DNA from: an uncultured Bdellovibrionales bacterium | GTDB taxonomy: Bacteria; Bdellovibrionota_C; UBA2361; SZUA-149; CAZDWZ01 | Assembly (NCBI GenBank): GCA_964405665.1 | Contig: CAYOOT010000006.1 | Coordinates: forward strand, 3,350-67,349 | DNA length: 64,000 bases | Reading direction: 5' to 3' | In this document: positions 14,066 through 64,000 of the stretch, piece by piece | Layout of the letters: every line of letters begins with the position of its first letter | How positions within the stretch are numbered: the first letter of the stretch is position 1 | The notes under the pieces: model-generated | The model's input: the letters and a program-made list of their open reading frames with translations, nothing else | What the model was told of the DNA's origin: nothing | The model's database searches: none | Position numbers and translations under genes: made by a program

Positions 14066-14082
14066 AATTAATGTCATTAAAA

Positions 14083-14160: not shown

Positions 14161-14179
14161 AATTTCCATTTTGGTTTTA

Positions 14180-15322: not shown

Positions 15323-15383
15323 TAAATTTCACTTTACTTTTGACTACACAAAAAATTAGGACTAGACTCCTACTAATAAATTT

Positions 15384-20525: not shown

Positions 20526-21792
20526 TCAATCTATCTCTTCCCAAAAACAACTTTGGCAATAAATTATATACGGAGCTTTCTCCGGATAAGTAGAAAGGAT
20601 ACTGGAATTGCATTTTTTACAAGTGCGACGGTAAAGTTGGCGCTCGCTTCTTAGGGCCATGCGCATTATATGGCGACAACTTGGGCAGTGCTCGGGTAAG
20701 GGCAGCTCTTTTCTTTGATAAAAAAGCTGTTCTTGGCCAATAATTGCAAATTTTTTCTTACATTCATTACGAGAACAGTTTCTAATTTCAGAATTAAAAT
20801 CCATTTTTCATCTCCTAAATTATTTCTTGTAATATGGGATCCGTTTCGCTTGTTAAGCGCTGCTTCTCATAGTCAGAAGAAAAAAATATCTCTAAATTGT
20901 AAGAACCGTTTTTGATTAATTCTTGACGTAAATGCCTAACAGAATTTTTATAATCTTCTTCGGAAAGAGCTTGATTGAGCAGATGAAATTTTTTATCGGT
21001 AAGAAAAGTGCAACCAAAGCAAGATTCCAATTTTTTGGAATAAGCGCAGAATTCTGAGTCTCGAGAGAGATCGGTATGTAAAAGAAAATTACAGTTATAA
21101 TTTAATGGAGAATGAACGCAATTATAACAAAGCTCATTTTCAAAACAGACTGTATGGTCACAACAAGTTTTATTGCCGTTTGTTTCAATACAATAAAAAC
21201 ATTCTTCCAAGGCATAACCGTCATAACACTGATAACAATCCTTGGCTTCAGTAAGATTATTTCCAATACAATCTTCGGTGCGAAATTGATGAGTGGCTAA
21301 CACTGGCATTTTTCTTTTTAATTCTTCTAATTTCTGAAGACATTGTTCAGGAGTGATTTTTTTAGAAGCGATTTTATATTCTTCCTTGGAAAGTTGCTGA
21401 TTAAATAAACAAAATTCTTTTCTGAGTAAACCATAACATCCCAGACAATTATTGCAGCTATAGCAATCAATACAGAAATCACATTCGATGCAATTGGAAC
21501 AGTTTTGCGAGCGGGAAGTATCGTAACAATAGGCACAATCAATACAATCCACACAAAACTCACAGCCCACACAAAAAGTTAGATCGCTGCAGGACACACA
21601 TTTTCTGGAATAGCGACTGTAGAGTAAATCTTCAGAATAAAAGGCTCCAAAAGTCCAATAACACTTATTGGATTTCACAGCTGTATCGCTATATTCACAA
21701 TTCTCGACTTGCACTTGCTTTAAATTATAGCGCGGCTTCTCTAAGAGTAACTTTTGAAAAGAGTTGATAAATTCTTCGGCAGAGACAAGCAT
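20526..21792 (-). pseudogene. Cys-rich family copy B: N-terminally truncated body (20815-21792) plus a separately framed C-terminal zinc-ribbon module (20526-20804)
   Basis: The 325-aa ORF aligns with the family core and ends …DPILQEII*. Ten nt downstream, a 92-aa ORF encodes exactly the family C-terminal module (CSRNECKKKFAIIGQEQLFYQRKELPLPEHCPSCR…YCQSCFWEE). A 10-nt gap (not a multiple of 3) implies a frameshift. No N-terminal module is found upstream. Confidence 0.6.
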
Positions 21793-21962: not shown

Positions 21963-22766
21963 ATGGCTCAGAAATCACAGCGAAATCGCCTCCTGGAACA
22001 GCTTTCTCTTTTTGGTTGTTCGCAAAAAGAAGCTGCAATTTATTTACATTGTCTGGAAATGGGAGAATCCTCAGTGCAGGATATTTCTCGTCGTCTGGGG
22101 ATTAATCGAGTTACCGTGCATAGTGCTTGCGAGCAATTATTAAAAAAAGGAATTCTCTCTGAAACAAGACGCGGCAAAGGACGAAGACTTCTGGCGGAGT
22201 CCCCTGCTGTGTTTGGTCGACTGCTGCAGCAACAAGAAAATGAATTAAATGTTAAGCGTTCACAATTAGATGAACTAACGACATTATTACAATCGATGCC
22301 CACTCGTGGCGGGCCGATGCCTACTGTCAGATTTTTAGAGGGTGTTGATGGATTCAAAAGAATGTTGGAAGAAACTTTATCGGCCAAAGGTGAAGTTTTT
22401 GTCTTTACGTATGTCGATCTTTTTTCCAAATTAATTGGTCCTGATTATTTGGAAGATTATTTTAAACGTCGAGCGGCAAAAGGAATTCATACGCGTTTAA
22501 TTTTCCCTCCCTGCCCTTTTGTTAATCGTGTGGCAAAAAAAGCTAAGCAGTATTTAATTAAAGTGCGATTGTTGCCTCCGGAATTTAAATGGCAAGCCGG
22601 TATTTTTTCTTGGAACAATTGTCTTTCTCTTAAATCTTTTACTCAAGGACAGATTACTTGCACGATTGTGGAGAATGAGGACTTAGCTCATTTTTATCAA
22701 AATGTTCTCTTTGAATTAGCTTGGAAACAAGCATCCCTTTTTACAGAATTAGAAAAGGAAGACTAG
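21963..22766 (+). CDS. TrmB-family winged-helix transcriptional regulator
   Basis: N-terminal HTH LFGCSQKEAAIYLHCLEMGESSVQDISRRLGINRVTVHSACEQLLKKG typical of TrmB, with a C-terminal sensor-like domain. Divergent from Cys-rich copy B. Confidence 0.55.
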   Translation: MAQKSQRNRLLEQLSLFGCSQKEAAIYLHCLEMGESSVQDISRRLGINRVTVHSACEQLLKKGILSETRRGKGRRLLAESPAVFGRLLQQQENELNVKRSQLDELTTLLQSMPTRGGPMPTVRFLEGVDGFKRMLEETLSAKGEVFVFTYVDLFSKLIGPDYLEDYFKRRAAKGIHTRLIFPPCPFVNRVAKKAKQYLIKVRLLPPEFKWQAGIFSWNNCLSLKSFTQGQITCTIVENEDLAHFYQNVLFELAWKQASLFTELEKED

Positions 22767-37981: not shown

Positions 37982-39700
37982 TTAATCACAAGCTGATCCA
38001 AAACAATCCTCGCAATATACAGGCTGACAATGGTTCGGAGAATAGGCAGTAGTGATATTTTCAGCACAGTGATCACATTGTCGCATAAATATTTGTCTAG
38101 TGGTGCGACTATTTTGACGTAGCTGATGGCGACAAAAAAAGCAGCTTGCCGGTAGTGCTAGTCCATTGAGTTTGTGCCATTCTAATTCTAATTGTTGAAG
38201 TCGATATCCACGACTACAAACATCACAACGTAAAGTTGCTTTGATCAAACTTTCCTCTGCTTGTTCTAGGTTATCTGGCAATTCAACTTTATCACTTACC
38301 AGAGTAATGTCCTTGTCATCTTCCCAGGAAAAACCCAGAGAACGTGCTTCTTTAGCTGAAAGCGGATAATGAACCTGTGCTTGCGTAAGATTATACGGAA
38401 AGTCTGAAAGCGATGGGGGAAAGAATTCACCCCATTCACCAGTATGCTTCATGTGATTTATGAGCTTCGGGACTAACAGAAGATAATCACTCTCTGAATA
38501 CTGTTTATTCAGAATACAATACTGATTATGCTTTAGGCTAATGCAACCAAATAAGTGCGCACAATCATATACGCAATCCATGCAGTAGGCTAAGTTATGC
38601 ACTCCAAAACTGCAGGCGAAACAACAGCGAATTTGATATGCCTTAGGCCCGCTATTTGCAGTTTCGATAATTAATTCTCCACCACCGCATTCATCACAAT
38701 CAAGAAATCCTTTCATGCTGGCAAATGCCTGGGCAGCATACATGCCTTCCCATAAATGGTGAGAATCAAAACATTTAATTGCATCCTTACATTCTATTAG
38801 ATAATTACCACTTACATTTTCATTGCGCACGCCTAGTAGATATCGCTCTGGAAATGATTTTCGAAAGACTTCAAATAGTTTACGGTATTTCTGCACACCA
38901 CTCCGATTTTGCAACTCTTGAACTAATTTCTTGTAAACACTGGGTGTGCAAGGTTTATTTTGAAAATAATATTCCTTATTGCGCAAATTGCAGCACAAAA
39001 AACAATTTTTACAACCGATACAGTTTCGAAGAAAATAAGAATCAGAACAATTTTCACATTGAGAAATGAAAGCACTATTGTAGCAACGGATACAATCTAT
39101 TGCTTCGTAACATAACTCCGAATCTTGAACTCGCAAACAGTCCAGAGAAGATTTTGAATTATCTAATCCATATGAGTAAAGACAGTCATGGTCATGATTC
39201 GAGTTAAACACCAGATAACAATTCTTTAACGCTCCTGTAAAATTAGTATAGGCAGAATTTTCAGAGTTGATATAATCTGTGTGCAGTGCAACATGCGGAA
39301 CAACATTTTTAAGTTCTTTTAATTGCTCAAAAAATGGCCTGGAAAAATCAATCTTCCGACCATACTCTCGCCCGTCAAATTTATCGCTATGCCAATATTC
39401 TGAATTAAAAACAGGATGTCGTACCTCATTTGAAAAATGACTAATGATTGACTTTCCAGTGGCATCACAATTACGTTTTACTAAATGTAATTGATTAAGA
39501 TGAAGAAGCCGTCTCTGAGAACGGCAGCGAGGACATTTTTTTGGATCAGGCATGCCAGATTTCTCGCGAAATTCATGTTCCCAATGTGTTATTGCAAATA
39601 CTTGAGAACAGTCACTGCAATTTTGTTGAGATATTATGTGACCAATCAAACCTGAACTATTATTATTTGCATCTATGACCATGAATATATAATATATCAA
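37982..39700 (-). CDS. Cys-rich family protein, copy C
   Basis: 572 aa. N-module CSDCSQVFAITHWEHEFREKSGMPDPKKCPRCR…LHLVKRNCDATGKSIISHF, Cys-rich cores ending CFLCCNLRNKEYYFQNK and …CISLKHNQYCILNKQYSESDY, C-module RCDVCSRGYRLQQLELEWHKLNGLALP…YCEDCF. Confidence 0.8.
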   Translation of the reverse strand: MIYYIFMVIDANNNSSGLIGHIISQQNCSDCSQVFAITHWEHEFREKSGMPDPKKCPRCRSQRRLLHLNQLHLVKRNCDATGKSIISHFSNEVRHPVFNSEYWHSDKFDGREYGRKIDFSRPFFEQLKELKNVVPHVALHTDYINSENSAYTNFTGALKNCYLVFNSNHDHDCLYSYGLDNSKSSLDCLRVQDSELCYEAIDCIRCYNSAFISQCENCSDSYFLRNCIGCKNCFLCCNLRNKEYYFQNKPCTPSVYKKLVQELQNRSGVQKYRKLFEVFRKSFPERYLLGVRNENVSGNYLIECKDAIKCFDSHHLWEGMYAAQAFASMKGFLDCDECGGGELIIETANSGPKAYQIRCCFACSFGVHNLAYCMDCVYDCAHLFGCISLKHNQYCILNKQYSESDYLLLVPKLINHMKHTGEWGEFFPPSLSDFPYNLTQAQVHYPLSAKEARSLGFSWEDDKDITLVSDKVELPDNLEQAEESLIKATLRCDVCSRGYRLQQLELEWHKLNGLALPASCFFCRHQLRQNSRTTRQIFMRQCDHCAENITTAYSPNHCQPVYCEDCFGSACD

Positions 39701-46956: not shown

Positions 46957-46976
46957 TTAAAAACAATGGAAATTTC

Positions 46977-48407
46977 TTACTTTTTTGAAGGAAGCAACTT
47001 CAGTATTGTCTGGGCAAGGGTTTCGTAATCTCCATCAAAATGATGAGATCCCCCCAGCTCTTTTACTATTATATCGCTATTCTTTAGTTTACTGCAAAGC
47101 GAATCTTCCTCTTCGTCGCTGCCATAAAGGCAAATAATCGATTGCCGATTTAATTTACTTATTTCCGGTAAAATTTCCTGTTCATCTTCTGGGGTCTCGA
47201 TATCCAGCCAGTCCGTAAAATGTATTTCAAACTCTGCCGTCAAACCGGGATTAAGTAAGATAGTGCTTAGAACCTTACTTTTAATTTTATTTTCCATTTT
47301 ATTTAAAGCAAAGGGTAAAACTTCAGCTCCCAAAGAATAGCCAATTAATAAGACTTTTTCCGATCCCCATTTCTTTTGGTAATTTAAGATTATATTTTCT
47401 AAATCCTGGGCTAAGGTTTCCGCATTTTTTTCTTTCCAAAAATATTTTAAGGCATCAAAACCGACGACATTGATTTGGTTTTCTTGGAAATAATCTCCAA
47501 GAGCTTTATCAATTGTTGCCCAACCACCATCTCCGGAGAGTAAGATAATAAAATAATCTTTAATAGCGTTTTCACTGGGAAGTTCGATTAAAGGAAGCTC
47601 AGAGATTTTTTCTGTCTGAATAACAGGACTTTGAGGTTTCTGTTCTTCACTTAATTTTATAAATTTATCAAAAAGCTCACAAGAATGTTCAGTACAAGAA
47701 AAAACTTCCCGCTTTGCTTGATAATTTTCAGCTAAAGCCTGAGGAAAACCTAGAGCAGACTTATTCTGGCAAGTATTTTTAAGCGCTAAATTAAAATACC
47801 AAGGAATATTAATCGATTTAGTCATTTCCAGATTAATGCTTTTTCTCTTTTTAGTTAAACTTGATTTGGGTTCAGAATCGGGGCAAAGTTTTTTTGTAAA
47901 AGGCAATTCTGGGCAGAAATTATAGGAAACACCTCCGAGAAAGCTTTTTGAAGATTGGGCAAGAATAGTATAGACCAGTGCACTTCCTACTCCATCACCG
48001 ATTAATAAAGGTTTGCTAACCTCATCTAATTTTGCCATTTTTTGAATGACTTGGCTTAAGCGCTCAAATTCACCGGCAAGATAAATACAGTCTTCATTAT
48101 CTTTATTAAGTTCTTTTAAATAAGAGGCCACATCAATTTTAACTAAAAGGATAGATTTTTTTTGAAGTTCAGAAATTTCCAAAGGAATGTTTTCTGAGAC
48201 ATTATTCCCTGCAAGGTAAAATACTACCAGCCTGGGCTGTTCTTTTGTTTTGAAATAACTGATTTTACCAAAGCGTGTAGTTGCTAAGACTTCTTGGGAA
48301 AAACAATCTTGTACAAAGAGGGAAAGCAAAAGAAAAGTTAAAAAAATGAATTTATTAATTAGAGTTAGTGCTCTAGAATTTATTATGACAGACATTCTTG
48401 AAAACAT
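46977..48407 (-). CDS. AcvB/VirJ-like secreted alpha/beta-hydrolase (aminoacyl-PG hydrolase partner of MprF/LpiA)
   Basis: Signal peptide and a C-terminal VirJ-type hydrolase region (…YFIILLSGDGGWATIDK…LLIGYSLGAEVLPF…). Placement immediately upstream of the mprF-like gene mirrors lpiA-acvB operons. Confidence 0.65.
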   Translation of the reverse strand: MFSRMSVIINSRALTLINKFIFLTFLLLSLFVQDCFSQEVLATTRFGKISYFKTKEQPRLVVFYLAGNNVSENIPLEISELQKKSILLVKIDVASYLKELNKDNEDCIYLAGEFERLSQVIQKMAKLDEVSKPLLIGDGVGSALVYTILAQSSKSFLGGVSYNFCPELPFTKKLCPDSEPKSSLTKKRKSINLEMTKSINIPWYFNLALKNTCQNKSALGFPQALAENYQAKREVFSCTEHSCELFDKFIKLSEEQKPQSPVIQTEKISELPLIELPSENAIKDYFIILLSGDGGWATIDKALGDYFQENQINVVGFDALKYFWKEKNAETLAQDLENIILNYQKKWGSEKVLLIGYSLGAEVLPFALNKMENKIKSKVLSTILLNPGLTAEFEIHFTDWLDIETPEDEQEILPEISKLNRQSIICLYGSDEEEDSLCSKLKNSDIIVKELGGSHHFDGDYETLAQTILKLLPSKK

Positions 48408-49981
48408 TTTTCGCAGTAAATTATCTTATTCGAATTTCCTTTAAAGCTGGATTCCAAAGGTGTAGCGCATTTAGAGCAGAAAGTCTTTAGCAGTTTTCTG
48501 GGATTTCTCAGACCCAAGCGCTTAGTATGGCGAATATCGTGATGAAGGTGCGGTAGCGGTAAATTTGATTTCTTTAAAAAATCCAACTCCGATTTTTGGA
48601 TTTTAAAGGACCGACCGGAAGCTTCACAATGAAGTACTTTCGTTAAAATCCCCGGATCGACCTCGCTAATAGTTTCAGGTAAGTTTTGTGTTGCCGAAGA
48701 AGTATTTTCTTTAAAATCTTTCCAGAGCAGTCCAGCGGATAAAGCTTCTTCTTTGGTGAGCGGGAAATATTCCTGGGCCACGGATTCATTATAAGCAAAC
48801 GGAGAGTTTTTAATAGGGAAATATTGCCCCCATTCTTTTGTTTCTTTCATCTGCAAAATAATTTTTTCTCTTAATTTTACAAAATCTTCTTGGGAGTATT
48901 CTTTATTAAGAATACTAAATTTCCCCTGTCTTAAGCCGACACAGCCGAATAAATCGGAAGAATTAAAACAATGCGAGCTATACCAGGTATTATGTGTTTC
49001 GCTGATCTTGGAAGAAAAACCGGAATTTGTATTTTTGTAGCAACCTTCAATTTCAATGCAAAAATCTTGCTCCAAAGTTTCCGTTAAATCCAGAGAATTT
49101 CTTCCGCCCCAGGCATCGCGGCAATGAAAGATGTTTTCGGAGTTCCGGCAATTAAAACTGTTAAAAGCATTTTTATTATTTTCTAAATAATCTCCCGAAA
49201 AATTTTCATTATTGGCGCCATTATAAAATTTAAAAGGATGAGTTAAGGAAAATTCTTCGAATTTCTTTTTAAAAGCTGTTATTTTGGAATATTTTTCCAG
49301 TTCCAAGGAATTTAAGACCTTAAAATATTCTTCTTTGGTGTATTGTTTATTGAAAATACAATAAGTTTTATTGTTTAAATTGACACAAGCTGTGCAATAA
49401 GAGCAACCTATTAAGTTTCTGGAAAAATTACAATTAGTGCAATTGACGAGATTCTCTGAAAAACTGCAAAAGTAGCAATTTTTTCCATTTAAAATTTCAT
49501 AACAAAGCTCTCCCTTTTCCAAATAAGTGCAATCCAGACATTCAGTGCAGGTTTGATACCACATGCCATACATACATTCTCTGGAATTATTACTACAGAA
49601 AACCAGATAGCAATCTTTATTTTTTTCGCACTGATTGGTGTATTCACAGTTTTCGCTTTGCGGACATCTGAGGGCACATTGAGGTACTACTGAGAATAGA
49701 TCTATAAATTGTTCAAAAAATGTTTTATTAAAATCATATGTTCTTCCGTATTTCAGGGCATTCCAATTGTCCGACCACCAATATTGTTGAGAATAAACAG
49801 GGAAACTTGTTCCTGTATCAAAAATTGAAATAATATTTTCTTTTGTAGCATCGCAAGTTCTTTTATAAAGAGTTCTTTCATTTCGCCAGGCCAATCTTTT
49901 TCTGGATCTTTCTTCACTGCTTATTGAAGGAATAGGAATATCTAATTTTAAATATAGTTCTTTTTCCAGATTATTATCCAT
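48383..49981 (-). CDS. Cys-rich family protein, copy D (3' end overlaps the acvB-like start by 25 nt)
   Basis: 532 aa. N-module KELYLKLDIPIPSISSEERSRKRLAWRNERTLYKRTCDATKENIISIF, cores ending …CVNLNNKTYCIFNKQYTKEEY and …CVGLRQGKFSILNKEYSQEDF, C-module LHCEASGRSFKIQKSELDFLKKSNLPLPHLHHDIRHTKRLGLRNPRKL…YCEKCF. Confidence 0.8.
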   Translation of the reverse strand: MDNNLEKELYLKLDIPIPSISSEERSRKRLAWRNERTLYKRTCDATKENIISIFDTGTSFPVYSQQYWWSDNWNALKYGRTYDFNKTFFEQFIDLFSVVPQCALRCPQSENCEYTNQCEKNKDCYLVFCSNNSRECMYGMWYQTCTECLDCTYLEKGELCYEILNGKNCYFCSFSENLVNCTNCNFSRNLIGCSYCTACVNLNNKTYCIFNKQYTKEEYFKVLNSLELEKYSKITAFKKKFEEFSLTHPFKFYNGANNENFSGDYLENNKNAFNSFNCRNSENIFHCRDAWGGRNSLDLTETLEQDFCIEIEGCYKNTNSGFSSKISETHNTWYSSHCFNSSDLFGCVGLRQGKFSILNKEYSQEDFVKLREKIILQMKETKEWGQYFPIKNSPFAYNESVAQEYFPLTKEEALSAGLLWKDFKENTSSATQNLPETISEVDPGILTKVLHCEASGRSFKIQKSELDFLKKSNLPLPHLHHDIRHTKRLGLRNPRKLLKTFCSKCATPLESSFKGNSNKIIYCEKCFQECLS

Positions 49982-51165: not shown

Positions 51166-51368
51166 CTGAGGCCAGATTGATTTTTAAATTTTATATAAGA
51201 ATTATATTTATAATCGACATTTCAGTTAAAAATCATAAGCCATTAATTATTCTCAACTTTACAGCTTTTACTCACTAAGAGTAAGTAATTTTTCACCTTT
51301 TCAATTTCCACTATTCCCTAGACTATCTTTTTTCCCCATTTGATCTTAAATAATAACTCTATATTTAT

Positions 51369-51749: not shown

Positions 51750-51771
51750 AAATGTTACTTATTTAATATAT

Positions 51772-53159: not shown

Positions 53160-53650
53160 TTACTCATTTCGTATTTTCATTCTTTTCGCATAGCGGGCAT
53201 CAGGACAGCAGCGTGGAATCGGTAAATTCATTTTTTTATAAAATTCAAATTCTTGAAGGATTATTTTATAATTTTTAGCGCTAATTTCACAACTTAAGAT
53301 TTCTTTGCAAATATCTGCAGAAGCTTCTTGGAGATCGTCAGGTAAAACGAAAGTCTGTTCCCGATAATCTTTTTTGTTTTCCTCTTGCCAGCGGTAACCA
53401 CTAGCAAGAGCGTTTTCTTTTTCTAAAGGGAATTTTTCATGGGCCACACTTTCATTATAGGCAAAGGGAGAGAGTTGTTTTGGAAAAAACTTCCCCCATT
53501 CCTTTGTTTTTTGCATTTGCTGGATAATTAAAGCTTTTAATTTAGCATACTCATTCGGCGAATATTCTTTATTTTAAAATGAGTCCTGCAGCCTTAGCTA
53601 AAAAATTAAAAGCCCCCGGCACCACAATGCAAAATATTTTACTGCGCTTA
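53160..53650 (-). pseudogene. decayed remnant of a Cys-rich family gene (3' region only, stops upstream, truncated C-terminal module)
   Basis: ORF 53160-53516 encodes …KEWGKFFPKQLSPFAYNESVAHEKFPLEKENALASGYRWQEE…CEISAKNYKIILQEFEFYKKMNLPIPR, the family C-terminal region, ending before the final CxxC. The in-frame upstream translation KYFALWCRGLLIF*LRLQDSF*NKEYSPNEYAKLKALIIQQ still resembles the family (…CFGCVGL…ILNKEYS…) but carries stop codons. Confidence 0.55.
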
Positions 53651-53990
53651 GAGAGAAAGGGTTTTGCCACAGTCAATGAAAGTAACAAAACACTAACTTA
53701 TAATGCCCTGCATTTGCCAGGAAAGTATATGAAAGTGGCAAATATTCTCCCAAATCCCATAAAGGATATAAGTGGATTCCGGAAAGTTTATATCCCTTTG
53801 TTATTGAAATGAATATCTATGATGGCAAAGTTTCCTATTTAACTTATGTGAGAAATGAAATTATCGGAGTGATTATCGAAAACGATTATATTTATCAAAT
53901 GCATAACTCGATGTGGAATTTGGTTTGGGATCTTTTGCCGGGGCCGGGATTAATTCGAGGCAAAAGTAATAAACAAAAGAAATAATATTT

Positions 53991-55507: not shown

Positions 55508-56076
55508 TATTGCTGTTTTTGAAGAATTTTATTCAAAATTTCTAATTCTTTTTGACCATAATTTGCAGTTAGTTTTTTTAAAAGTTCCATATTAAGCTCT
55601 TCTGCAGAAACTTTTAATACATTCTGAATATCTTCCAAATCTTTTGCACTACCAGCAAATATTTTCATGGAAATAAAATCTTCCAAAGAACAGATATTGA
55701 TAGTTTGATTATTAAATGCAGCTGAAACAGTTCTTTTTATAAAAGAATCATCCAAGCCCTTAATTCCAAGTATTAGATCTACTTTATTGGAGTAAGAATC
55801 ACTGACCGCTATTAATCCCTTTAAAGGATCTTCAAAATCGGGCTCATGATACTGAACAGAATATCCTCTATCTTGAAAATCATTTAATAAGCTTTTTATT
55901 GTTGAGGAGCTTTGTTGTAGAAAGATTATTGCATCAATATCAAGACTGGCTCTCACTGAACCATAATAAGAAGCAGCGAAAGCTCCAATAATGCCATAAT
56001 TAATATTCTTTTCTTTAAATAACTCTATCAAGTCTAGAAGTAAGAAGATGGATTGTCCAGTGGCAGTTGTTTTCAT
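55507..56076 (-). CDS. minimal nucleotidyltransferase-fold protein (Pol-beta superfamily GS…DxD) inserted within the ABC-2 operon
   Basis: GIIGAFAASYYGSVRASLDIDAIIF matches the hG[GS]-x9-13-DhD NTase motif. 189 aa with a helical C-terminal half. Confidence 0.5.
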   Translation of the reverse strand: MKTTATGQSIFLLLDLIELFKEKNINYGIIGAFAASYYGSVRASLDIDAIIFLQQSSSTIKSLLNDFQDRGYSVQYHEPDFEDPLKGLIAVSDSYSNKVDLILGIKGLDDSFIKRTVSAAFNNQTINICSLEDFISMKIFAGSAKDLEDIQNVLKVSAEELNMELLKKLTANYGQKELEILNKILQKQQ

Positions 56077-56081
56077 AATAA

Positions 56082-56243
56082 TTATTTATTTCTTTTTTGT
56101 TCTCTGCTTTTTTTTCCAACATGGAAAATTTTTGCCAGTTCTGTAGTGTGATTGACGAATGCTTGCAATCTTTCAGCTTTACTCATTTTCTTATGAGCTT
56201 CTAATAGATCCTCTCTTGATTTTTCATTTAGTTTTGATTTCAT
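56082..56243 (-). CDS. small (53 aa) helical ORF translationally coupled to the nucleotidyltransferase; possible antitoxin-like partner
   Basis: MKSKLNEKSREDLLEAHKKMSKAERLQAFVNHTTELAKIFHVGKKSREQKRNK. Its stop lies 5 nt before the NTase ATG. Below the ORF-track length threshold. Confidence 0.25.
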   Translation of the reverse strand: MKSKLNEKSREDLLEAHKKMSKAERLQAFVNHTTELAKIFHVGKKSREQKRNK

Positions 56244-56304
56244 TTATATAAAATAACACATAAATGATTAATTTTATAGTCTCATTCTTAGACAAGCGCA
56301 AACT

Positions 56305-57114
56305 TTAGCCTCCTTGCAGAGTTAGGCTTTTAATGGATTTTTTCCAAAAAAGTTGCACCAAGATAACAAGCAAGATACTCCAAAGAGTAGCTGCAACATA
56401 ACTGTTGATTAGCTCTTCTTTACTTAGTTTTCCTAGATAAGCCTGCATTGGGATATAGGTAATATATTTAAAAGGCATCAGATCTAAAATATCTTTAAAT
56501 GCCTTAGGAAAGAAACTGAGCGGAAGAAGCAATCCGGAGAATAATTGCAATAAAAAGTATTTTGCCCGAGAAATTCCTTGAATGGATTTTAGACTAAAAG
56601 CAAGTAAGCCAATTAAAAAATTAACTTCAGCAAGAATCATAAAACTTCCCACAGTAAGCAGTAGAAAATGAATACCTGCTGAGAAATTTGCCGGAAACGA
56701 TATTGGATAGAGATAAAATACGGCCAAACAAATGGGAGCGGTAAAAAATAATATTCTAAATAAAGATTCTCCCACGGCCTTAGCCAGCATCATTAAATGA
56801 AAACTAACAGGACGCAGCAAGTAATTACTGATTTGTCCCGTTTTTACAATATCATCGATTTCTTCATCGACATTGGAAAAATAAAAGCTGCGGGCAATCC
56901 AACCAATGGCAATATAGGTAATCATTTCATTGAGCTTAAATCCATTAATCGCCCCATTAGGATTACCGCTATAGACTGCTTCCCAGATGTAATAGTGCAC
57001 TGTGATAAAAAGAATATAAGTGAGGATACCGGTGTAGAATCTCATGCGATAAGAAAGAATCGAGAGAAAGGAAAGATTGATGTAACTAAAATAAGGACCT
57101 AGTTTTTCCAGCAT
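56305..57114 (-). CDS. ABC-2 family exporter permease, subunit 1
   Basis: 6-TM permease. Its start overlaps the ATPase stop. Confidence 0.65.
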   Translation of the reverse strand: MLEKLGPYFSYINLSFLSILSYRMRFYTGILTYILFITVHYYIWEAVYSGNPNGAINGFKLNEMITYIAIGWIARSFYFSNVDEEIDDIVKTGQISNYLLRPVSFHLMMLAKAVGESLFRILFFTAPICLAVFYLYPISFPANFSAGIHFLLLTVGSFMILAEVNFLIGLLAFSLKSIQGISRAKYFLLQLFSGLLLPLSFFPKAFKDILDLMPFKYITYIPMQAYLGKLSKEELINSYVAATLWSILLVILVQLFWKKSIKSLTLQGG

Positions 57115-58112
57115 CAGAGCCCATCGGTATAGATTTTCTTAATAACATCTTCGATGTTTGGTTCAGACAAAATCACATCAGAAACATTAAAATTTGCTAA
57201 AATATCTTTTAATAAATCTCCAGTAGAAAGCAGGTTAGGATCATATTGACAAATTGCCCTTCTGCTACCCTCCATTTCATAACTAAGTTTTTCTTGGAAA
57301 AAAAATTTTAATTTGTCTACTGGGGTTTCTGTGGAGAAATCAATAACCAAGCTTCTCTTTAATCCAGGTAAAGATTTTATTTTATGAATACTACCATCAT
57401 ACATCACAATGCCCTTATCCAAGATTACAATCCTTGTGCACAGCTCCTCAATCTCCTTTAAATCATGGGTTGTCAGTAAGATTGTGGTTTTAAATTCTTT
57501 GTTGATATATTTTAAAAACTCGCGAATACTGTCTTTAGCAATAGCATCAAGCCCAATAGTTGGTTCATCAAGAAATAGAATCTTTGGTTGATGCAATAAG
57601 CTTGCTGCCAAATCACACTTCATTCTTTGTCCGAGAGAAAGTTTTCGAACAGGGGTGTTCAACAAATCTCTTAAATTAAGAACATCACACAAAATATCCA
57701 ATCTTTTTTTATAATCGGCATTGGAAACTTTGTAAATTTTTGCCAGAAGTTTAAAAGATTCAATTACTGCGATATCCCACCAGAGTTGAGTGCGTTGTCC
57801 AAAGACCACACCGATCGAACAAGTATAAGTTTTGCGATCGCGAAAGGGATCAAAACCAAGAATATTCATTTGTCCGGAAGTTGATTTTAAAATACCAGTT
57901 AGCATTTTGATACTCGTTGATTTACCTGCGCCATTTGGTCCGATATAGCCCAGTAACTCACCTTCATTAATCGATAGACTAATATTATCCACGGCTTTAA
58001 AGTCAGTATAGTTTCTTTGAATCAGGTCTTTGAGTCCGCCGCTTATTCCTTCTCGCTTTTTTTGTTGCTTAAAGATCTTTGTGAGGTTTTTTACTTGGAT
58101 AATTTCTGGCAT
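57114..58112 (-). CDS. ABC transporter ATP-binding protein
   Basis: Walker A GPNGAGKST, signature LSLGQRMK, Walker B ILFLDEPT, and an H-loop; 332 aa. Confidence 0.85.
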   Translation of the reverse strand: MPEIIQVKNLTKIFKQQKKREGISGGLKDLIQRNYTDFKAVDNISLSINEGELLGYIGPNGAGKSTSIKMLTGILKSTSGQMNILGFDPFRDRKTYTCSIGVVFGQRTQLWWDIAVIESFKLLAKIYKVSNADYKKRLDILCDVLNLRDLLNTPVRKLSLGQRMKCDLAASLLHQPKILFLDEPTIGLDAIAKDSIREFLKYINKEFKTTILLTTHDLKEIEELCTRIVILDKGIVMYDGSIHKIKSLPGLKRSLVIDFSTETPVDKLKFFFQEKLSYEMEGSRRAICQYDPNLLSTGDLLKDILANFNVSDVILSEPNIEDVIKKIYTDGL

Positions 58113-58171
58113 AATATGTTATTTAGACTTAACTAAAATAAATTGCAATATTCAACTAAAGGACAATTTCT

Positions 58172-59317
58172 ATGTTCAAAAAAATTTTCTTTCTTTTAAT
58201 TTTCTCTATTAGTTCTTGTAAAAATAATACAGAAACAAAAAATAATCCCAATGATAGCGCCAATCAGCAAAAAATCAAAATTGGTTGGATTGGAGCGCTT
58301 ACTGGTCCGGTAACAAAATTCGGGTCTTACCAGGCGGCACAAATTGCACTTGAGGATATTAATGCCAGTGGAGGAATTAATGGAAAACCGCTGGAACTTA
58401 TTTTTGAAGACGGACAATGTAACGGCAAATTTGCTGTCAGTGCTGCTAAGAAATTAATCGAATTAGATAAGGTCAATTTGATTTTGGGCGGACATTGCAC
58501 TCCGGAATCCCTGGCCATTGCTCCCATTGTGGAAACTAAAAAAGTAGTGATGCTAGCCGCTTCTACTACTACACCAAAATTAAGCAATGCCGGAGATTAT
58601 GTTTTTAGATTAAGTCCAGTTAATACTTCCGGAACAAAGTTGATAATTGATTACTTAAAAAATACATTTAAGCCAAAGAAAATAGCGATATTTTATGAGC
58701 TAACCGATTATGCCGCTCCTCCGGCAGAATTATTAAAATCAGAAATAGAAAAAAATCCTTCGATGGAACTTGTATTTTTTGAAAGCTTTAATACTGGCGA
58801 AACGGATTTTAGAACTTTAATATCTAGATTAAAAAGTAAAGAAGCTGATGCCATTTACGTTGGCACTCAATCCCAAGATTCTGCCTCCTTGGTAGTTAAG
58901 CAAATTAAAGAGCAAAATATTTCCACACAACTTTTTGGCAATGAAGTTTTTGGTGGAGTAGTTGTCTCTCATCCTGAGCAAAAGGCAGATTTTGAAAATT
59001 CTATTTATGCCGAGCCTTTTTTTGATCCAACAACTGCCTTGACCAGCCCTTTTGTTGATAAATATGAAAAGAAATTTGGAACAAGAGCATTACCTTTTGG
59101 AATTTGGACAGCGGAAGCTTATGATACTGTAATGTTGCTTGCTAAATTAGTAAAAGAATGTGGAGAAAGTGCTGAGGCGATAAAAACTTGCCTCTATCAA
59201 GTTAAAGACTATGCCGGTGCTTCAGGAATAGTTTCTATTGATAGCAATGGCGACGGAGTGAGAAAATACTACATTAATAAAATTGTCGACGGTAAACCGC
59301 AAAGAATTGGAGGCTAA
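58172..59317 (+). CDS. lipoprotein, type-1 periplasmic binding protein (branched-chain amino-acid-binding LivK-like)
   Basis: Lipobox LLIFSISSC and a PBP1 pattern (KIGWIGALTGPVTKFG…). 3' end overlaps convergent Cys-rich copy E by 4 nt. Confidence 0.75.
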   Translation: MFKKIFFLLIFSISSCKNNTETKNNPNDSANQQKIKIGWIGALTGPVTKFGSYQAAQIALEDINASGGINGKPLELIFEDGQCNGKFAVSAAKKLIELDKVNLILGGHCTPESLAIAPIVETKKVVMLAASTTTPKLSNAGDYVFRLSPVNTSGTKLIIDYLKNTFKPKKIAIFYELTDYAAPPAELLKSEIEKNPSMELVFFESFNTGETDFRTLISRLKSKEADAIYVGTQSQDSASLVVKQIKEQNISTQLFGNEVFGGVVVSHPEQKADFENSIYAEPFFDPTTALTSPFVDKYEKKFGTRALPFGIWTAEAYDTVMLLAKLVKECGESAEAIKTCLYQVKDYAGASGIVSIDSNGDGVRKYYINKIVDGKPQRIGG

Positions 59318-60993
59318 TTAATCTTAGAGTGATAGCAAGTTTCACACAAAATCCTACTATCATAATCTTTTGGCCAACTGGTTTTAGTGCTCTTTAAACA
59401 TTGCTGACATTTGCTTTCTCGCAGCTCTCCGGAAAAAGGAATCCATTGATAATTATCTTGGAGACGATGAGTATAATAGGAAGACGGTAAGGGCACGCCG
59501 ATTTTATTGGAAAAAATTATATCAGCTTTGCTGATTTTAAATGGACGTTGATATTCTTCATCCCAAAAAACTGTATTTGTTAGCGAATGCTGCGGATCAT
59601 TTAATGCCGCTTGGATTAAATCGGAACTTAGTTGATCGATAATTTCCCGAGAAGAGCAATAATTTGTTTGCTGACGCTCTAATTTTGCTGCTGTTCTAAA
59701 CCCTAATTTACTTTGTTCTTCTTCTGATAATTTAAAACGAAATCCGGATAAACTTTCATTATAGGGATTGGGTGCAAAATGCCCGGGAAAGAAGGTCCCC
59801 CACTCTCCTGTTTCTTTCATTTGTTCAATAATCTGATCTTTTAAAATTCGATATTCTTTTTCGGAATAAGCTTTATTGAAAATATGAAATTTTTTCTGAA
59901 ATAAACCACAACAAGCAAAACAATTTTCGCACTGAAAACAATAAGCCGAGTAATCGCAAAAACGACAGGAATTAAGTTCAAAACTGAAGCTGGTTTGATA
60001 ACAAAAAACATTCATTACGGAATAATAAGTTAGCTCCGTGCCGATTGTTCCCATTGCATCTAATGTAAATTTGGCATTGGGACCGGAGACGGCATCGTTG
60101 ACGCAATTCTCATGATAGGAAAGCTCAAAACAGTTTTCGCAATTCTTGCAATGTTCCAAATAGTTTCCACTGCTATCTTCAGACTTGTCTATAAAAACAG
60201 CCTTGTGATAAGCCGTTTTTAACATCATCTCGGCAAAAAAACTTTTAGCTTTTTGATAAACTGTATTCGATAATAAGTTCCAGTTTTTCTTAGTTTCTTG
60301 AAATTCACTTTCCGTCATCTGCTTGTTGCCGAAACAAAAGCGTTTGTTTCTTAAATTAAAACAAAACATGCAATCGCGACAATTTCTACAATCATAAAGA
60401 AAAGTGGAATCCTGAACATTGCGGCAATGAATGCCATAAATTAAATTATAGCAGTCTTGAGAACAGACCAAATCAAAACAAAGCTCAGAATTGATTCCAA
60501 ATACACAATAGTGACAATCTCTTAATTTGGTACAGTAAATACAGTAATGACAATCTTCGGAATATTCTCCGGAATGACAGAGATAACAATTTTTGCTGTG
60601 ATAAAAATCATCAGTATATTCACAGTTCTGGTTACTCTTTTGAAAAATATGAGGCAAAGGACAGCGCTGAAACAGCTCCCAGGCTTGTTCAAAAAAAGAA
60701 CGGGAAAAAATATAGTTCGTATTTGGCGGATTAGCATTGGCAATCCATTGGTCTTTATGCCAGATCGGGTAAGGACAATCGGGACGAAAAATAGAAACAA
60801 TATTTTGTTTTGTTAAATCACAAGTTCGGGAATACAAATTCCAATGGGGCCAGAATGCTCCCAACTCGCGAAAGCGATATTGTGGTTTGATTTTAGGCCA
60901 GCTCTCAGAAAAACCAAACTTACTTCTTAATTGTTTTTCTAACTCAGAAAGAACAAAGTTTTCTCCTGAGATTTGACAGAGAAGACTACTCAT
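59314..60993 (-). CDS. Cys-rich family protein, copy E (18 nt downstream of bshA, same strand)
   Basis: 559 aa. N-module LLCQISGENFVLSELEKQLRSKFGF…LYSRTCDLTKQNIVSIF, cores ending CFNLRNKRFCFGNKQMTESEF and CCGLFQKKFHIFNKAYSEKEY, C-module …KIGVPLPSSYY…CQQC…LCETCY. Confidence 0.8.
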   Translation of the reverse strand: MSSLLCQISGENFVLSELEKQLRSKFGFSESWPKIKPQYRFRELGAFWPHWNLYSRTCDLTKQNIVSIFRPDCPYPIWHKDQWIANANPPNTNYIFSRSFFEQAWELFQRCPLPHIFQKSNQNCEYTDDFYHSKNCYLCHSGEYSEDCHYCIYCTKLRDCHYCVFGINSELCFDLVCSQDCYNLIYGIHCRNVQDSTFLYDCRNCRDCMFCFNLRNKRFCFGNKQMTESEFQETKKNWNLLSNTVYQKAKSFFAEMMLKTAYHKAVFIDKSEDSSGNYLEHCKNCENCFELSYHENCVNDAVSGPNAKFTLDAMGTIGTELTYYSVMNVFCYQTSFSFELNSCRFCDYSAYCFQCENCFACCGLFQKKFHIFNKAYSEKEYRILKDQIIEQMKETGEWGTFFPGHFAPNPYNESLSGFRFKLSEEEQSKLGFRTAAKLERQQTNYCSSREIIDQLSSDLIQAALNDPQHSLTNTVFWDEEYQRPFKISKADIIFSNKIGVPLPSSYYTHRLQDNYQWIPFSGELRESKCQQCLKSTKTSWPKDYDSRILCETCYHSKIN

Positions 60994-61011
60994 TGGACTA
61001 ATTATAGTGGA

Positions 61012-62163
61012 TTAGAGATTGCTATAATAGTAGTTTTCATACTGCTCAATAATATTTTCCAGTTTGAAATTATTAACTGCTGTTTCTCTTGCCGCCTTAG
61101 AAAAACTACTCCAGAGTTTGGAATTATTTAATAGTCTAAGGGCATTTGCCGCCATTTCTTCCACATTTCCGACATCAGAGAGAAATCCGTCTTTGCCGTG
61201 ATTGACTAATTCCGGAATTCCCTGGGTGTTACTGGCGATCACCGGAACTCCGCAACTCATCGCTTCTAATGCAGCCAAACCGAAACTTTCTGATTCGCTA
61301 GGCAATAAAAATAAGTCGGATTGCTGAAGTATTTCCACAAAGCTTTCTAATTTTCCTAAGAAATTTACTCTTTCAAATACTCCTAATTCCCGTGCCAAGC
61401 TTTCTGCCCCTGCCCTTTCCGGGCCATCGCCAATTAGAATTAAGTGCGCCGGTAAAGTTTTATTAATTAGACTAAAAATTTTAATGACATCCCCTATTCT
61501 TTTTACCGGTCTAAAATTGGACGTATGCACTAAAATTTTATCATTCTTTGTACATTTATTGAGAAAACTATAAAGACTTGCAGAAACATTGAGATCTCTT
61601 GGGGCATATTTTTCAGTATCTATAAAGTTGTAAATGACTTCAACTGGTTTATCTGTACTAATATTAATCTTATCGTAGGTGGCATTTCTTAAGTAATGCG
61701 AAGGTACTGTTACACCGTCACTTTGTTCAATAGAAAAACGTACAATCGGCAGATAACTGCGATCACTTCCCACTAAAGTAATATCGGTTCCATGCAGTGT
61801 GGTGATAATTTTTGGAGCCTTATCTCCGAGGATTTGCTTAGCCAAATAAGCACTGGTCGCATGCGGCACTGCATAATGCACATGCAAGATATCTAACTTT
61901 TCAAAAGTGCAGACTTCCACAATTTTTGAAGCAAGGCTTAAAGGATATTGTGGATGGATGAATAAAGGATAATCCCGCATTTCCACTTCATGAAAAAAGA
62001 TATTTTTTGTGAAACGATCGATTCTTCTTGGAATATCATACGCAATAAAATGCACTTTATGTCCGCGCTTAGCCAGGGCCATGCCAATTTCCGCGGCAAT
62101 TACACCACTGCCGCCATAAGTGGGATAACAACAAATTCCGATATTTAAGTTTTGTTTGTTCAT
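61012..62163 (-). CDS. bshA: N-acetyl-alpha-D-glucosaminyl L-malate synthase BshA (GT4 glycosyltransferase)
   Basis: Collinear match along the whole length to the BshA pattern: [20 protein letters not shown]…[13 protein letters not shown]…TTLHGTDIT…NFID…SNFRPVKR…LIGDGPE…[16 protein letters not shown]. Confidence 0.8.
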
Positions 62164-62903
62164 TTGTTTTGACTAAAAATTAAAGTATCCTTACCGGGGT
62201 TATCAATAAAATAGCTTACCGGATCATTAATGCTAATGGAATTTGTAATTAGAAATGGTTCCCCGAATTCAGCTCCAATCATTGCTCCACAATACTCGTC
62301 TCTTGCCGTAATTGAACTGATAGAAAGTGGTGAATTGATTAAGGTTTGAATATTAGAATTTTTCTTAACCTGACTTTGATAACAATTGATCGCATCGAGT
62401 TTTTGTTGATAAACGTTGGTTATATCCACTACAAATGAAGGAGTAAAAGTATAACGCATTTGATAAAAGGCAATTTGATTAGTAACGAAACGCTCTTCTT
62501 TGCAGGGATATTTTTTTAGACCGGCGAAATAAACAGCTTTTTTAATAATCAAACTGCACTGCACATGGTCGGGGTGTCGATCTTCCCAATATGGGGCAAG
62601 AATTAATTTGGGCTTAAGTTTTCTGATTGCTAAAACAACGGCGTCAATTTGTTCCCGGGAAGAACTATCTAAATATGCATCTTTTAAAGCTAAATTGCCC
62701 CGGTAGCTTAAGCTTAATTTTTTAGCGGCAGCTTCTGCTTCAGCTGCTCTTTTTTCAATGGTGCCCTGGGTTCCCATTTCTCCTTTGGTTAAGTCCAGCA
62801 AACCGGTTTTGTACTTAAGCTTTGCCATTTTTGCCAAAGTACCGCCGCAAAAAATTTCGACATCATCAGGATGGGGAGAAATGGCAAGAATGTCTAATTC
62901 CAT
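62160..62903 (-). CDS. bshB: bacillithiol biosynthesis deacetylase BshB (LmbE/PIG-L family)
   Basis: LDILAISPHPDDVEIFCGGTLAK…ILAPYWEDRHPDH metal-binding motifs. Overlaps the bshA start by 4 nt. Confidence 0.8.
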   Translation of the reverse strand: MELDILAISPHPDDVEIFCGGTLAKMAKLKYKTGLLDLTKGEMGTQGTIEKRAAEAEAAAKKLSLSYRGNLALKDAYLDSSSREQIDAVVLAIRKLKPKLILAPYWEDRHPDHVQCSLIIKKAVYFAGLKKYPCKEERFVTNQIAFYQMRYTFTPSFVVDITNVYQQKLDAINCYQSQVKKNSNIQTLINSPLSISSITARDEYCGAMIGAEFGEPFLITNSISINDPVSYFIDNPGKDTLIFSQNK

Positions 62904-62906
62904 ATC

Positions 62907-64000
62907 TTAAAGCTTTATTTTAAGTTCGTTTTTACTAAAGGGTTTGAAATTGCTCTTTATAACATTTTTAAATTCAAATCCATATTTTAACCAAAAGTAA
63001 GCAAAAGCAATAATTCTTTCCTGTGGTTCATTTAAGGGAAAAATGTTGTTTTTTAGCTTGTTTATTCTAGTTTCCAGAGCAGTTGAGCTCTCTTTTAATT
63101 TATCTTTATATTTATCCAGAACTGCCTGATAAATTGCATTAACTTTTTCATTAGCCTTATTCAGATTTGTAACTAAGACCGAATCAACTTCTTTAAATTT
63201 AGCTGCAAATTTTTCTGATATTTTGTTTAAATCTGTTTTAATTTCTTGTTCAAAGTTGGTAGCAACTTGAAATTCCGGATTTAATTTTGAATGCAAATCG
63301 TCGATATTTTCTATCTTAATCTCCAGTAAATCATTTTCTGAGATTTCTAATTTTTCAGCCAATCTTCTTGTGGAAGCTTCAAAGATTGTGGCGGATAGTC
63401 GAGGAAATAATAAGCAAGGAGTTTGAGAAAAATGATTTCTAATGGAATCTACTTGTTTAAAATATTCTAGTTCGGCATTTCCCCCGATGTAGCCAATATT
63501 GGGAAATAAATAATCTTGTAAAATTGGACGAAGTAAGGCTGTGGTAGAGAATTTTTCCGGATGGCTTGTCAACTCATTTAAAAGTTCTTCTTTAGTTAGA
63601 CTAAGCTCATATCCCCTTAATTGCCAATTGTTTTGATTTTCTTCCAGTCTGTATCTTTCTTCCAAGCCAGTTGTAGTTTTCTGTAAATAAAAAAACAAAG
63701 GAGAATTAGGCAAAATCTTTACTTGCTCTGAACCTATTGCTGCACTTTTCATTAAGGATTCGTTGATTAGGGAATGTTTTTCCAGAGCTGTTTTAAATAC
63801 CGGCTTAAATAATTCGGCCACGCCTTTTGCTCGGGGATCAAAAAACAATAAACCATCTTCAGAAAATAAATATGCAAGAAAGTCTTTAAAAGCATCGGAG
63901 TAATTCTTATGTTCCAGATAACATTTATTGATTATTTCAAATTGATCAAGGTTTACATTAAAAACATTATCTTTAAGTTCTTTTTTTAAGCCTTCAATAT
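62907..64000 (-). CDS. bshC: probable bacillithiol cysteine-adding enzyme BshC, C-terminal ~365 aa (5' end beyond window)
   Basis: Reading frame open to the window edge. Coiled-coil C-terminus and position directly upstream of bshB-bshA. Sequence similarity to BshC is inferred, not verified. Confidence 0.5.
   Translation of the reverse strand, partial: IEGLKKELKDNVFNVNLDQFEIINKCYLEHKNYSDAFKDFLAYLFSEDGLLFFDPRAKGVAELFKPVFKTALEKHSLINESLMKSAAIGSEQVKILPNSPLFFYLQKTTTGLEERYRLEENQNNWQLRGYELSLTKEELLNELTSHPEKFSTTALLRPILQDYLFPNIGYIGGNAELEYFKQVDSIRNHFSQTPCLLFPRLSATIFEASTRRLAEKLEISENDLLEIKIENIDDLHSKLNPEFQVATNFEQEIKTDLNKISEKFAAKFKEVDSVLVTNLNKANEKVNAIYQAVLDKYKDKLKESSTALETRINKLKNNIFPLNEPQERIIAFAYFWLKYGFEFKNVIKSNFKPFSKNELKIKL

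Follow-up and report, generated by a model that had tools for sequence, protein, structure and literature searches.

A cysteine-rich gene behind the bacillithiol operon of an uncultured Bdellovibrionales bacterium: adjacency without signs of a shared pathway

Introduction

Bacillithiol (BSH) is a low-molecular-weight thiol whose biosynthetic pathway comprises three enzymes: BshA couples UDP-GlcNAc and malate, BshB1 deacetylates the product, and BshC attaches cysteine. In a 64,000-nucleotide stretch of DNA from an uncultured Bdellovibrionales bacterium (assembly GCA_964405665.1, contig CAYOOT010000006.1, positions 3,350 to 67,349 of the forward strand; hereafter the window), genes for these enzymes are directly followed by a gene for a cysteine-rich protein, here called copy E, raising the question of whether this protein belongs to the bacillithiol pathway or merely lies beside its genes. 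A preliminary description of this DNA proposed that the two are functionally coupled and that the cysteines of the protein family are redox- or thiol-relevant. Having compared the locus with those of relatives, and copy E with its orthologs, we consider it likely instead that the window combines a standard bacillithiol, probably N-methyl-bacillithiol, operon with a lineage-specific 2.9-kb segment, and that nothing indicates a shared pathway.

Results

Identity of the thiol biosynthesis genes

The 3' end of the window is made up of four consecutive minus-strand genes, bshC, bshB, bshA and copy E (Table 1); as read from the sequence, bshB begins 3 nt past the stop codon of bshC, and bshA and bshB overlap by 4 nt. 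Orthology was tested by the equivalog cut-offs of NCBIfam and the gathering scores of Pfam. We found that BshA matched TIGR03999 at 535.6 bits against a cut-off of 273.7, with residues 7-381 of its 383 covered, and that the next-best GT4 model gave 120 bits. BshB1 scored 255.7 bits with TIGR04001 (cut-off 182.5), and the rival models BshB2, MshB and Mca reached 52, 30 and 20 bits, all far under their cut-offs. Because the window edge truncates bshC, its product matched TIGR03998 at profile positions 175-524 only and below the cut-off (212.9 versus 265.8 bits, E 9e-63); the fragment passed Pfam gathering for PF10079 and PF24850, and it was 62.5% identical to the full-length BshC of the closest relative, L079. 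The closest named relatives of the window BshA, at 63-66% identity, came from metagenome-assembled genomes (MAGs) of Bdellovibrionota, Bdellovibrionales and Oligoflexia, where NCBI names the protein BshA. From these sequence comparisons we conclude that the three genes are genuine bshC, bshB1 and bshA. This agrees with the preliminary description, which had recognised a bshC-bshB-bshA operon with bshC running past the window edge and had considered that the enzymes might turn out to be generic GT4 and LmbE proteins, a possibility ruled out for BshA and BshB1 by scores above both equivalog cut-offs; for BshC the match is partial.

The same description placed trxB in the window, where we also found it (8024-8944; 387.9 bits with TIGR01292, cut-off 343.45). 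The candidate assignment of this gene as the YpdA/Bdr bacillithiol disulfide reductase was rejected, since its product scored 77 bits against the 340 required for YpdA and exceeded the cut-off of TIGR01292. A search of the window for a Brx-like (PF06491) gene found none.

The locus in related genomes

For comparison we used five Bdellovibrionota contigs, namely L079, whose BshA is 86% identical to that of the window, and L080, L083, L084 and L085, with 66-68% identity. All five had the gene order methyltransferase-bshC-bshB-bshA, and in all five an ABC-2 transporter, composed of one ABC_tran and two ABC2_membrane_6 permease genes, followed zero to two genes downstream. A cysteine-rich gene after bshA was present in none of the five. 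In L079, 4 nt lie between the stop codon of bshA and the ATPase gene of the ABC (ATP-binding cassette) transporter, whose ATPase and permease are 84% and 80% identical to those of the window. As monitored by blastn and tblastn, homology between the two sequences ends at 61019 and resumes at 58112 of the window. Given this break in homology between bshA and the ABC ATPase gene, the intervening 58113-61011 represents a 2.9-kb insertion or deletion (indel), which in the window splits what appears in L079 as a single bsh-ABC operon. The segment carries, besides copy E, a gene for a periplasmic substrate-binding protein (SBP) whose N-terminus, 'LLIFSISSCKNN', resembles a lipobox; the two genes converge, sharing 4 nt at their stop codons. 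By sequence comparison the segment looks like a lineage-specific insertion, and we infer that the change was a gain here. In this model, the lineage of the window would have acquired the 2.9-kb segment at the junction of bshA with the transporter genes, and the position of copy E behind bshA would be an accident of landing that gives no evidence of a shared pathway.

To cover the family more widely, a scan of one genome per species was carried out, which yielded 78 copy-E-like loci of 28-60%, mostly 40-54%, identity. When the window BshA, BshB and BshC were used as tblastn queries, no match was obtained within 10 kb of any of these 78 loci. Copy-E orthologs in Bdellovibrionales and Oligoflexia MAGs stood alone in the two contexts available, next to genes for a DUF72 protein and a peptidase and to a TetR/RND (resistance-nodulation-division) cluster, and without bsh adjacency. 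Moreover, the window has about 52 genes and six family loci, from which we estimate the chance adjacency of a family locus to a given three-gene operon at about 1 in 5, which makes the arrangement unremarkable. The functional coupling put forward in the preliminary description is left unsupported by these counts in the relatives and at the copy-E-like loci.

The relatives also bear on the kind of thiol that is made. For the methyltransferase that precedes bshC in them, NCBIfam holds no NmbA model, and the gene was assigned through PDB entry 9RI2. In a comparison with solved structures, the L079 methyltransferase best matched CtNmbA (PDB 9RI2) over its full length at E 4.6e-31, the next match being at 2e-13; CtNmbA is an N-methyl-bacillithiol synthase with a crystal structure (PMC12719100). 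The window ends inside bshC, and the assignment of an NmbA-like gene rests on the relatives. On this evidence the clade is predicted to make N-methyl-bacillithiol. Beyond the transporter, four of the five relatives (L080, L083, L084 and L085) carry a gene for a Brx-type (PF06491) protein of 135-139 residues, with a CGC motif in the L084 protein, the one that was read. We suggest that the bsh-ABC-2-Brx neighbourhood may form an island for redox functions and for the export of BSH conjugates.

Table 1. Coordinates of the genes, modules and comparison loci. Positions are those of the window unless another sequence is named.
Feature	Coordinates	Strand	Remarks
bshC, 3' two-thirds, cysteine-adding enzyme	62907..64000	-	363 residues visible; gene continues past the window edge
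bshB1, GlcNAc-malate deacetylase	62160..62903	-	247 residues
bshA, N-acetyl-alpha-D-glucosaminyl L-malate synthase	61012..62163	-	383 residues
Spacer between bshA stop and copy E ATG, 18 nt	60994..61011	-	read from the sequence
Cys-rich copy E	59314..60993	-	ATG start, 559 residues, 38 Cys, isoelectric point (pI) 6.4, no evident N-terminal signal peptide
Copy E N-terminal module, residues 1-100, putative degenerate treble-clef zinc finger	60694..60993	-	keeps C6, C58, C73
Copy E Cys-ladder repeat 1, residues 118-236, predicted beta-solenoid	60286..60642	-	ends C202-x2-C205-x2-C208-x2-C211-x8-C220
Copy E Cys-ladder repeat 2, residues 268-386	59836..60192	-	ends C352-x2-C355-x2-C358-x2-C361-C362-G
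Copy E C-terminal module, residues 470-559	59317..59586	-	C529-x2-C532-x17-C550-x2-C553
Segment unmatched in L079 between bshA and ABC ATPase gene (copy E and convergent SBP gene)	58113..61011		2.9 kb
Lipoprotein-type periplasmic SBP, Leu/Ile/Val-binding class	58172..59317	+	NF011933 E 1.2e-42, under cut-off
ABC-2 ATPase gene	57114..58112	-	conserved downstream neighbour of bshA in relatives
ABC2_membrane_6 permease gene	56305..57114	-	conserved downstream neighbour of bshA in relatives
Class-I S-adenosylmethionine (SAM) methyltransferase directly 5' of bshC	L079:2674-3411 (+); L080:5016-5756; L083:2833-3582; L084:2718-3452; L085:536-1270
ABC-2/Brx region of relatives, with the window region	L080:10088-13322; L083:8151-11821; L084:9003-12267; L085:6694-9892; window 54713-58112
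Paralog A, 549 residues, 30 Cys	15384..17033	+	61 nt after recF; blastp 27% identical to copy E, E 2e-56
Paralog B, split	20526..21792	-	core-only open reading frame (ORF) 20815-21792 (325 residues, 34 Cys) and 92-residue zinc-finger ORF 20526-20804
TrmB-family regulator, divergent from paralog B	21963..22766	+	PF01978; full-length homolog, 28% identity, E 1e-38, of regulators in the candidate phyla radiation (CPR)
Paralog C, 572 residues, 41 Cys from first ATG	37982..39700	-	21 nt after AlaX-like editing-protein gene; complete terminal zinc fingers
Paralog D, 532 residues, 32 Cys	48383..49981	-	3' end overlaps start of virJ-like gene by 25 nt; upstream of mprF
Family fragment, likely gene remnant	53166..53678	-	tblastn 42-43% identity to residues 345-508 of copies D and A
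Campylobacter phage (CP20/CPt10/CP220) hypothetical proteins	MK408758.1:25619-25951, NC_027997.1:24347-24595		34-39% identity (tblastn) to one Cys-ladder repeat

Expression of copy E

Copy E had been described as lying 18 nt downstream of bshA on the same strand, and the spacer is indeed exactly that long. A terminator or a promoter between the two genes would separate their expression, as the preliminary description itself had pointed out; a consensus scan found no terminator in or near the spacer, and no promoter was called in it, promoter-like sites being no more frequent than chance predicts (18 found, 19.2 expected). A TATAAT hexamer lies in the spacer at 61006-61001, 7 nt 5' of the copy E ATG; were it active as a promoter element, the resulting mRNA would lack a leader. 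Hexamers of this kind occur often in DNA of 35% G+C. The spacer has no Shine-Dalgarno-like motif, and the use of this absence as an argument against translation of copy E was rejected because only 14 of 48 window genes have such a motif. From the gene layout we consider it probable that transcription starting at the bsh promoter reads through into copy E. Of the co-transcription that had been proposed earlier, read-through is thus plausible, given the shared strand, the 18-nt gap and the lack of a predicted terminator, and the joint transcript itself stays a prediction.

Architecture and cysteine conservation of copy E

Copy E contains 38 cysteines, not more than 40 as had been stated, and it has no Pfam, NCBIfam or PADLOC match; PADLOC, which covers anti-phage defence, matched none of the five window paralogs. 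Two internal duplications were detected by hhalign, one between the N-terminal and C-terminal modules (probability 98.1%, E 1.2e-13) and one between Cys-ladder repeats 1 and 2 (probability 99.6%, E 1.7e-23). The homology of the terminal modules to zinc-finger modules rests on the family alignment and hhalign, copy E itself giving no match to PF13451 or PF23477. Taken with the lack of an evident signal peptide, we picture copy E as a cytoplasmic protein in which putative terminal zinc-finger modules would flank two predicted Cys-ladder solenoid repeats.

Conservation was examined in an alignment of 28 copy-E-type sequences, in which about 13 of the 38 cysteines are invariant and are located in CxxCxxCxxC blocks; C355, C358, C361 and C362 are invariant or nearly so. 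The remaining cysteines are freely swapped for Ser, Leu or Ala in orthologs. At the C-terminus, the CxxC-x17-CxxC motif is exact in copy E, only its C529 is invariant in orthologs, and in many of them CxxC...CxxC has become CxxS...SxxE; many Gracilibacteria orthologs are without the last finger. The E subfamily as a whole has only C6 left of the first N-terminal finger, and its first C-terminal finger has turned into "FWDE...". Invariant non-cysteine residues include W48, W51, W83, F101, H115, Y332 and W477, and many of the invariant residues of this kind are aromatic or charged. Thiol or metal buffers of the metallothionein type are small, have about 30% Cys and few if any aromatic residues, and are under little constraint away from their cysteines; with 559 residues, 6.8% Cys and 11 Trp, copy E falls outside this class. 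The replaceable cysteines, the placement of the conserved ones in CxxC blocks and the invariant non-cysteine residues together are therefore not the pattern expected of a free-thiol buffer or an S-thiolation target. The earlier suggestion of redox- or thiol-relevant cysteines does not fit a protein in which many of them are replaced by Ser, Leu or Ala and the conserved ones lie in CxxC ladders and zinc-finger motifs. Judging from the alignment and the models, the conserved cysteines are most likely structural metal (zinc) ligands inside the fold and are unlikely to be exposed redox thiols. An HdrB-like Fe-S domain at the CCG motif formed by C361, C362 and the following glycine was considered and dropped, there being no Pfam CCG match and no such motif in repeat 1.

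Cysteine spacings are strongly enriched at 3, 6, 9, 12 and 24 residues. The AlphaFold2 model of copy E had a predicted local distance difference test (pLDDT) score of 79.8 and a predicted template modelling (pTM) score of 0.82, and the model of the copy B core, built from a 72-sequence alignment, reached a pLDDT of at least 90 over most of the two repeats; the latter is all-beta, with strands that recur every 12 residues. Foldseek searches of the PDB returned only generic beta-helices, namely pectate-lyase-like enzymes, tailspikes and pentapeptide-repeat proteins, at E of at least 2e-3 and template modelling (TM) scores of at most 0.17. The full copy E model gave nothing below E 5 in the same database, and the profile of the copy-E alignment, run against PDB sequences, gave chance matches only (E at least 0.3).

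Other members of the family

As the preliminary description had noted, copy E is one of several paralogs in the window: four are full-length (A, C, D and E), B is split, and one more is a fragment. Their proteins have no evident signal peptide and pI values of 5.0-7.0. The core ORF of paralog B lacks both terminal modules, and the 92-residue ORF that lies 3' of its stop codon in another frame is a complete stand-alone module with all Cys ligands intact and a weak PF13451 match. When tested alone, the N-terminal module of copy C scored 25.6 bits with PF13451 (cut-off 24) and its C-terminal module 26.5 bits with PF23477 (cut-off 27); the termini of paralogs C and D gave weak matches to PF23477 zf_Tbcl_2. 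Some database members of the family are named "CxxC-x17-CxxC domain-containing protein", and the core of the family is without a Pfam model. All five window paralogs matched phrog_15341 in their Cys-ladder core (E 1.7e-9 to 6.5e-4). Among viral models, small Cys-rich proteins from a giant virus and from Campylobacter phages matched best, Foldseek against BFVD giving a probability of 1.0 for a 138-residue ChoanoV1 protein and a 141-residue IBB35 protein.

The family is large. Its profile matched 5,082 clusters (50% identity) at E of at most 1e-3 and 2,050 at E of at most 1e-30, and nearly all of the 150 best matches have the same length. Relatives of copy E are "hypothetical proteins" of about 550 residues and 44-57% identity from Candidatus Gracilibacteria, Peregrinibacteria/Peribacteria and Abawacabacteria, together with a few Bdellovibrionota; orthologs of paralog D, Oligoflexia included, are 57-88% identical. 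The window paralogs are 27-35% identical to one another and find closer counterparts in CPR bacteria, with maxima of 46-57%, from which it follows that the paralog set is old and independent of the bsh operon. By these sequence identities, the family paralogs are shared or exchanged between Bdellovibrionota and CPR lineages. In CPR genomes the family forms same-strand arrays, with at least two members at 38 of 77 loci and up to 11 in 21 kb. In five Peribacteria/Peregrinibacteria loci (L029, L036, L062, L046 and L077) such same-strand arrays hold 9-11 members in about 21 kb, a large investment for genomes of about 1.4 Mb. Outside the family itself, only a TrmB-family regulator recurs as a neighbour, at 16 of 77 CPR loci; the window has one of its own beside paralog B (Table 1). 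The cysteine-rich '14-gene cluster' of Ca. Peribacter riflensis was tried as a member of the same family and rejected, as its proteins are 580-3,860 residues long and described as mostly exported (PMC4736985).

Genomic surroundings

All family copies, whether full-length, split or fragmentary, lie within about 45 kb of dnaA. The row dnaA-dnaN-recF occupies 10960-17033 on the plus strand together with paralog A, and gyrB and gyrA follow 7.7 kb further on; between paralog A and gyrB/gyrA lie six genes, including paralog B and the TrmB-like regulator. On the minus strand at 44356-49981, paralog D, a VirJ-domain gene, mprF (lysyl-phosphatidylglycerol synthase) and a DUF1003 gene form one more gene row that looks like an operon and is bounded on one side by a family member. 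The fragment, which has no matching N-terminal part, sits between TauE-like and AAA_14/DUF4143 genes. Also found in the window are secA, trxB, mprF and further housekeeping genes, along with an RND pump that has a TetR regulator and an outer-membrane factor. Small genes of accessory type are scattered between the housekeeping genes on the minus strand at 37213-37713, 50056-53085 and 55507-56243; they comprise ORF6N (PADLOC candidate PDC-S05, E 8e-55), NTP_transf_5 and AAA_14/DUF4143 (PDC-S01, E 3e-28) genes, and a DUF6036 nucleotidyltransferase gene with a partner of 53 residues has a toxin-antitoxin-like look. Several accessory genes are positioned differently in the window and in L079, which points to frequent indels in the region.

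Discussion

Some considerations weigh against the view that copy E came to its place by insertion and shares no pathway with the operon in front of it. The indel may reflect a deletion in the relatives instead of an insertion here, the comparison covering five relatives of which the closest has a BshA of 86% identity. The 18-nt gap on the same strand without a terminator may mean real co-expression with bsh, which could be under selection. Bacillithiol in Bacillus subtilis buffers labile zinc and supports the assembly of Fe-S clusters, and given these roles a link between a poly-cysteine metalloprotein and BSH is chemically reasonable.

The last two of these points, together with the presence of 38 cysteines in a presumably cytoplasmic protein, are what speaks for copy E as a partner of bacillithiol whose joint transcription with bshCBA would be purposeful; as such it might serve as a metal chaperone, buffer thiols or be a target of S-bacillithiolation. 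We hold such a partnership to be very unlikely, however, since five of five relatives with the same operon lack copy E at this position, bsh genes occur within 10 kb at none of the 78 ortholog loci, and the other paralogs of the window adjoin operons of unrelated content; many cysteines are replaceable, with the conserved ones in CxxC ladders typical of buried metal ligands, and the conserved companions of bsh in the relatives are nmbA-like, ABC-2 and Brx-like genes, the Cys-rich family not being among them. It is somewhat less improbable, though still unlikely, that the operon look is illusory and that a promoter located in the spacer or in the last part of bshA drives copy E independently, possibly as a leaderless transcript. 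The TATAAT that ends 7 nt before the copy E ATG, a 9-of-12 promoter-like match at 61076-61049 on the minus strand and the free-standing copy E orthologs of other Bdellovibrionota are consistent with such a promoter; yet matches of this kind are at chance level in a region of 35% G+C, the -35 hexamer 17 nt upstream of TATAAT is poor, and no terminator lies between bshA and copy E.

A functional tie of copy E to its convergent SBP gene and the ABC-2 exporter, for instance as a cytoplasmic regulator or accessory of the transporter, would fit with the Peripla_BP_6 gene that also follows paralog A, with SBP homologs 2-5 kb from the family gene at three Peribacteria loci and with ABC ATPase genes adjoining the family at 8 of 77 loci. 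Against this, the two SBPs of the window are only 23% identical in a partial alignment, the ABC ATPases near the family are of heterogeneous types, the ABC-2 transporter stands beside bshA in relatives that have no copy E, and for gene classes as common as these, occurrence at 3 of 78 and 8 of 77 loci is a weak association, so that we regard such a tie as highly improbable. The more specific idea of a duplicated two-gene unit, a family copy plus an SBP gene, was rejected because the gene orientation differs and the SBPs, aligned in part, are only 23% identical.

A standard bacillithiol operon beside a lineage-specific segment thus remains the likely account of this locus, and one juxtaposition is no ground for annotating the Cys-rich family as linked to bacillithiol. 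The family merits follow-up apart from bacillithiol: it has some 5,000 clusters, is multi-copy even where CPR genomes are very small, and is shared with Bdellovibrionota. Viewed jointly, the models and alignments allow the tentative proposal that it represents a new kind of intracellular protein, in which two beta-solenoids of 12-residue coils, with CxxC-ladder interiors holding stacked metal-thiolate sites, would be capped by treble-clef zinc fingers, and of which old, differentiated paralog sets would be common to Bdellovibrionota and Gracilibacteria/Peregrinibacteria, both of which include cell-attacking bacteria; expression here is possibly tied to zinc or thiol buffering. If the Cys-ladder solenoid is real and metal-filled, it would constitute a new structural class and point to a common cellular function in these lineages.

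Comparison with known systems

Among proteins of known fold, the core of the family comes closest to cytoplasmic or Cys-stabilised beta-solenoids such as the pentapeptide-repeat protein EfsQnr. The copy B core is likewise predicted to be all-beta with a 12-residue period, family cysteines recur at 3 and 12 residues, and the pentapeptide-repeat proteins 6fls and 2w7z were among the beta-helix matches in Foldseek; unlike these proteins, the family has no pentapeptide or hexapeptide Pfam match and no sequence similarity to solved structures. The Tenebrio antifreeze protein is a beta-solenoid of 12-residue coils, and disulfide ladders of the antifreeze type are unlikely in the family because the family protein is presumably cytoplasmic.

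The terminal modules resemble treble-clef fingers, PF13451 zf_Tbcl and PF23477 zf_Tbcl_2 being matched by those of paralogs C and D, whereas copy E has no match and has lost its first C-terminal finger and most N-terminal ligands; a further difference is that the family modules are appended to a Cys-ladder core of 350 residues. Copy E ends in the exact CxxC-x17-CxxC zinc-finger motif, and the stand-alone module of 92 residues at 20526-20804 is another point of likeness to fingers of this type. Small CxxC-x17-CxxC proteins of Methanosarcina mazei bind zinc experimentally (PMC12704099).

In the Cys-ladder core the family is also like phrog_15341, the Campylobacter phage proteins (CP220/CPt10/IBB35) and a TNFR-Cys protein of a giant virus. 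These viral proteins differ in being about 140-280 residues long, with one repeat only and without terminal modules; they have no assigned function and add no functional information on the family.

For the operon, the standards of comparison are the BSH and N-methyl-bacillithiol pathways of Bacillus subtilis and Chlorobaculum tepidum, which the window resembles in that BshA and BshB1 pass the equivalog cut-offs and the visible portion of BshC matches as well; the likeness to Cba. tepidum extends to the methyltransferase 5' of bshC in the relatives, whose best match is CtNmbA (9RI2). In the window and its relatives, all three or four pathway genes form one compact operon beside an ABC-2 transporter in a diderm host of the Bdellovibrionota type, whereas the separated locus numbers CT0548, CT1419 and CT1558 of Cba. 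tepidum suggest dispersed genes (PMC6282198). The preliminary description had called the presence of bsh genes in a diderm taxonomically informative; their occurrence is correct, and it was already known, both from BSH genes reported in Chlorobi, Bacteroidetes, Acidobacteria, Chlamydiae, Gemmatimonadetes and Proteobacteria (Hiras et al. 2018; PMC6282198) and from the NCBI-named BshA of Bdellovibrionota MAGs. Published work regards BSH derivatives as the most widespread thiols of bacteria, with which the finding is in line, and the compact nmbA-like-bshC-bshB-bshA cluster is a useful, expected addition to the diderm lineages predicted to use bacillithiol or N-methyl-bacillithiol.

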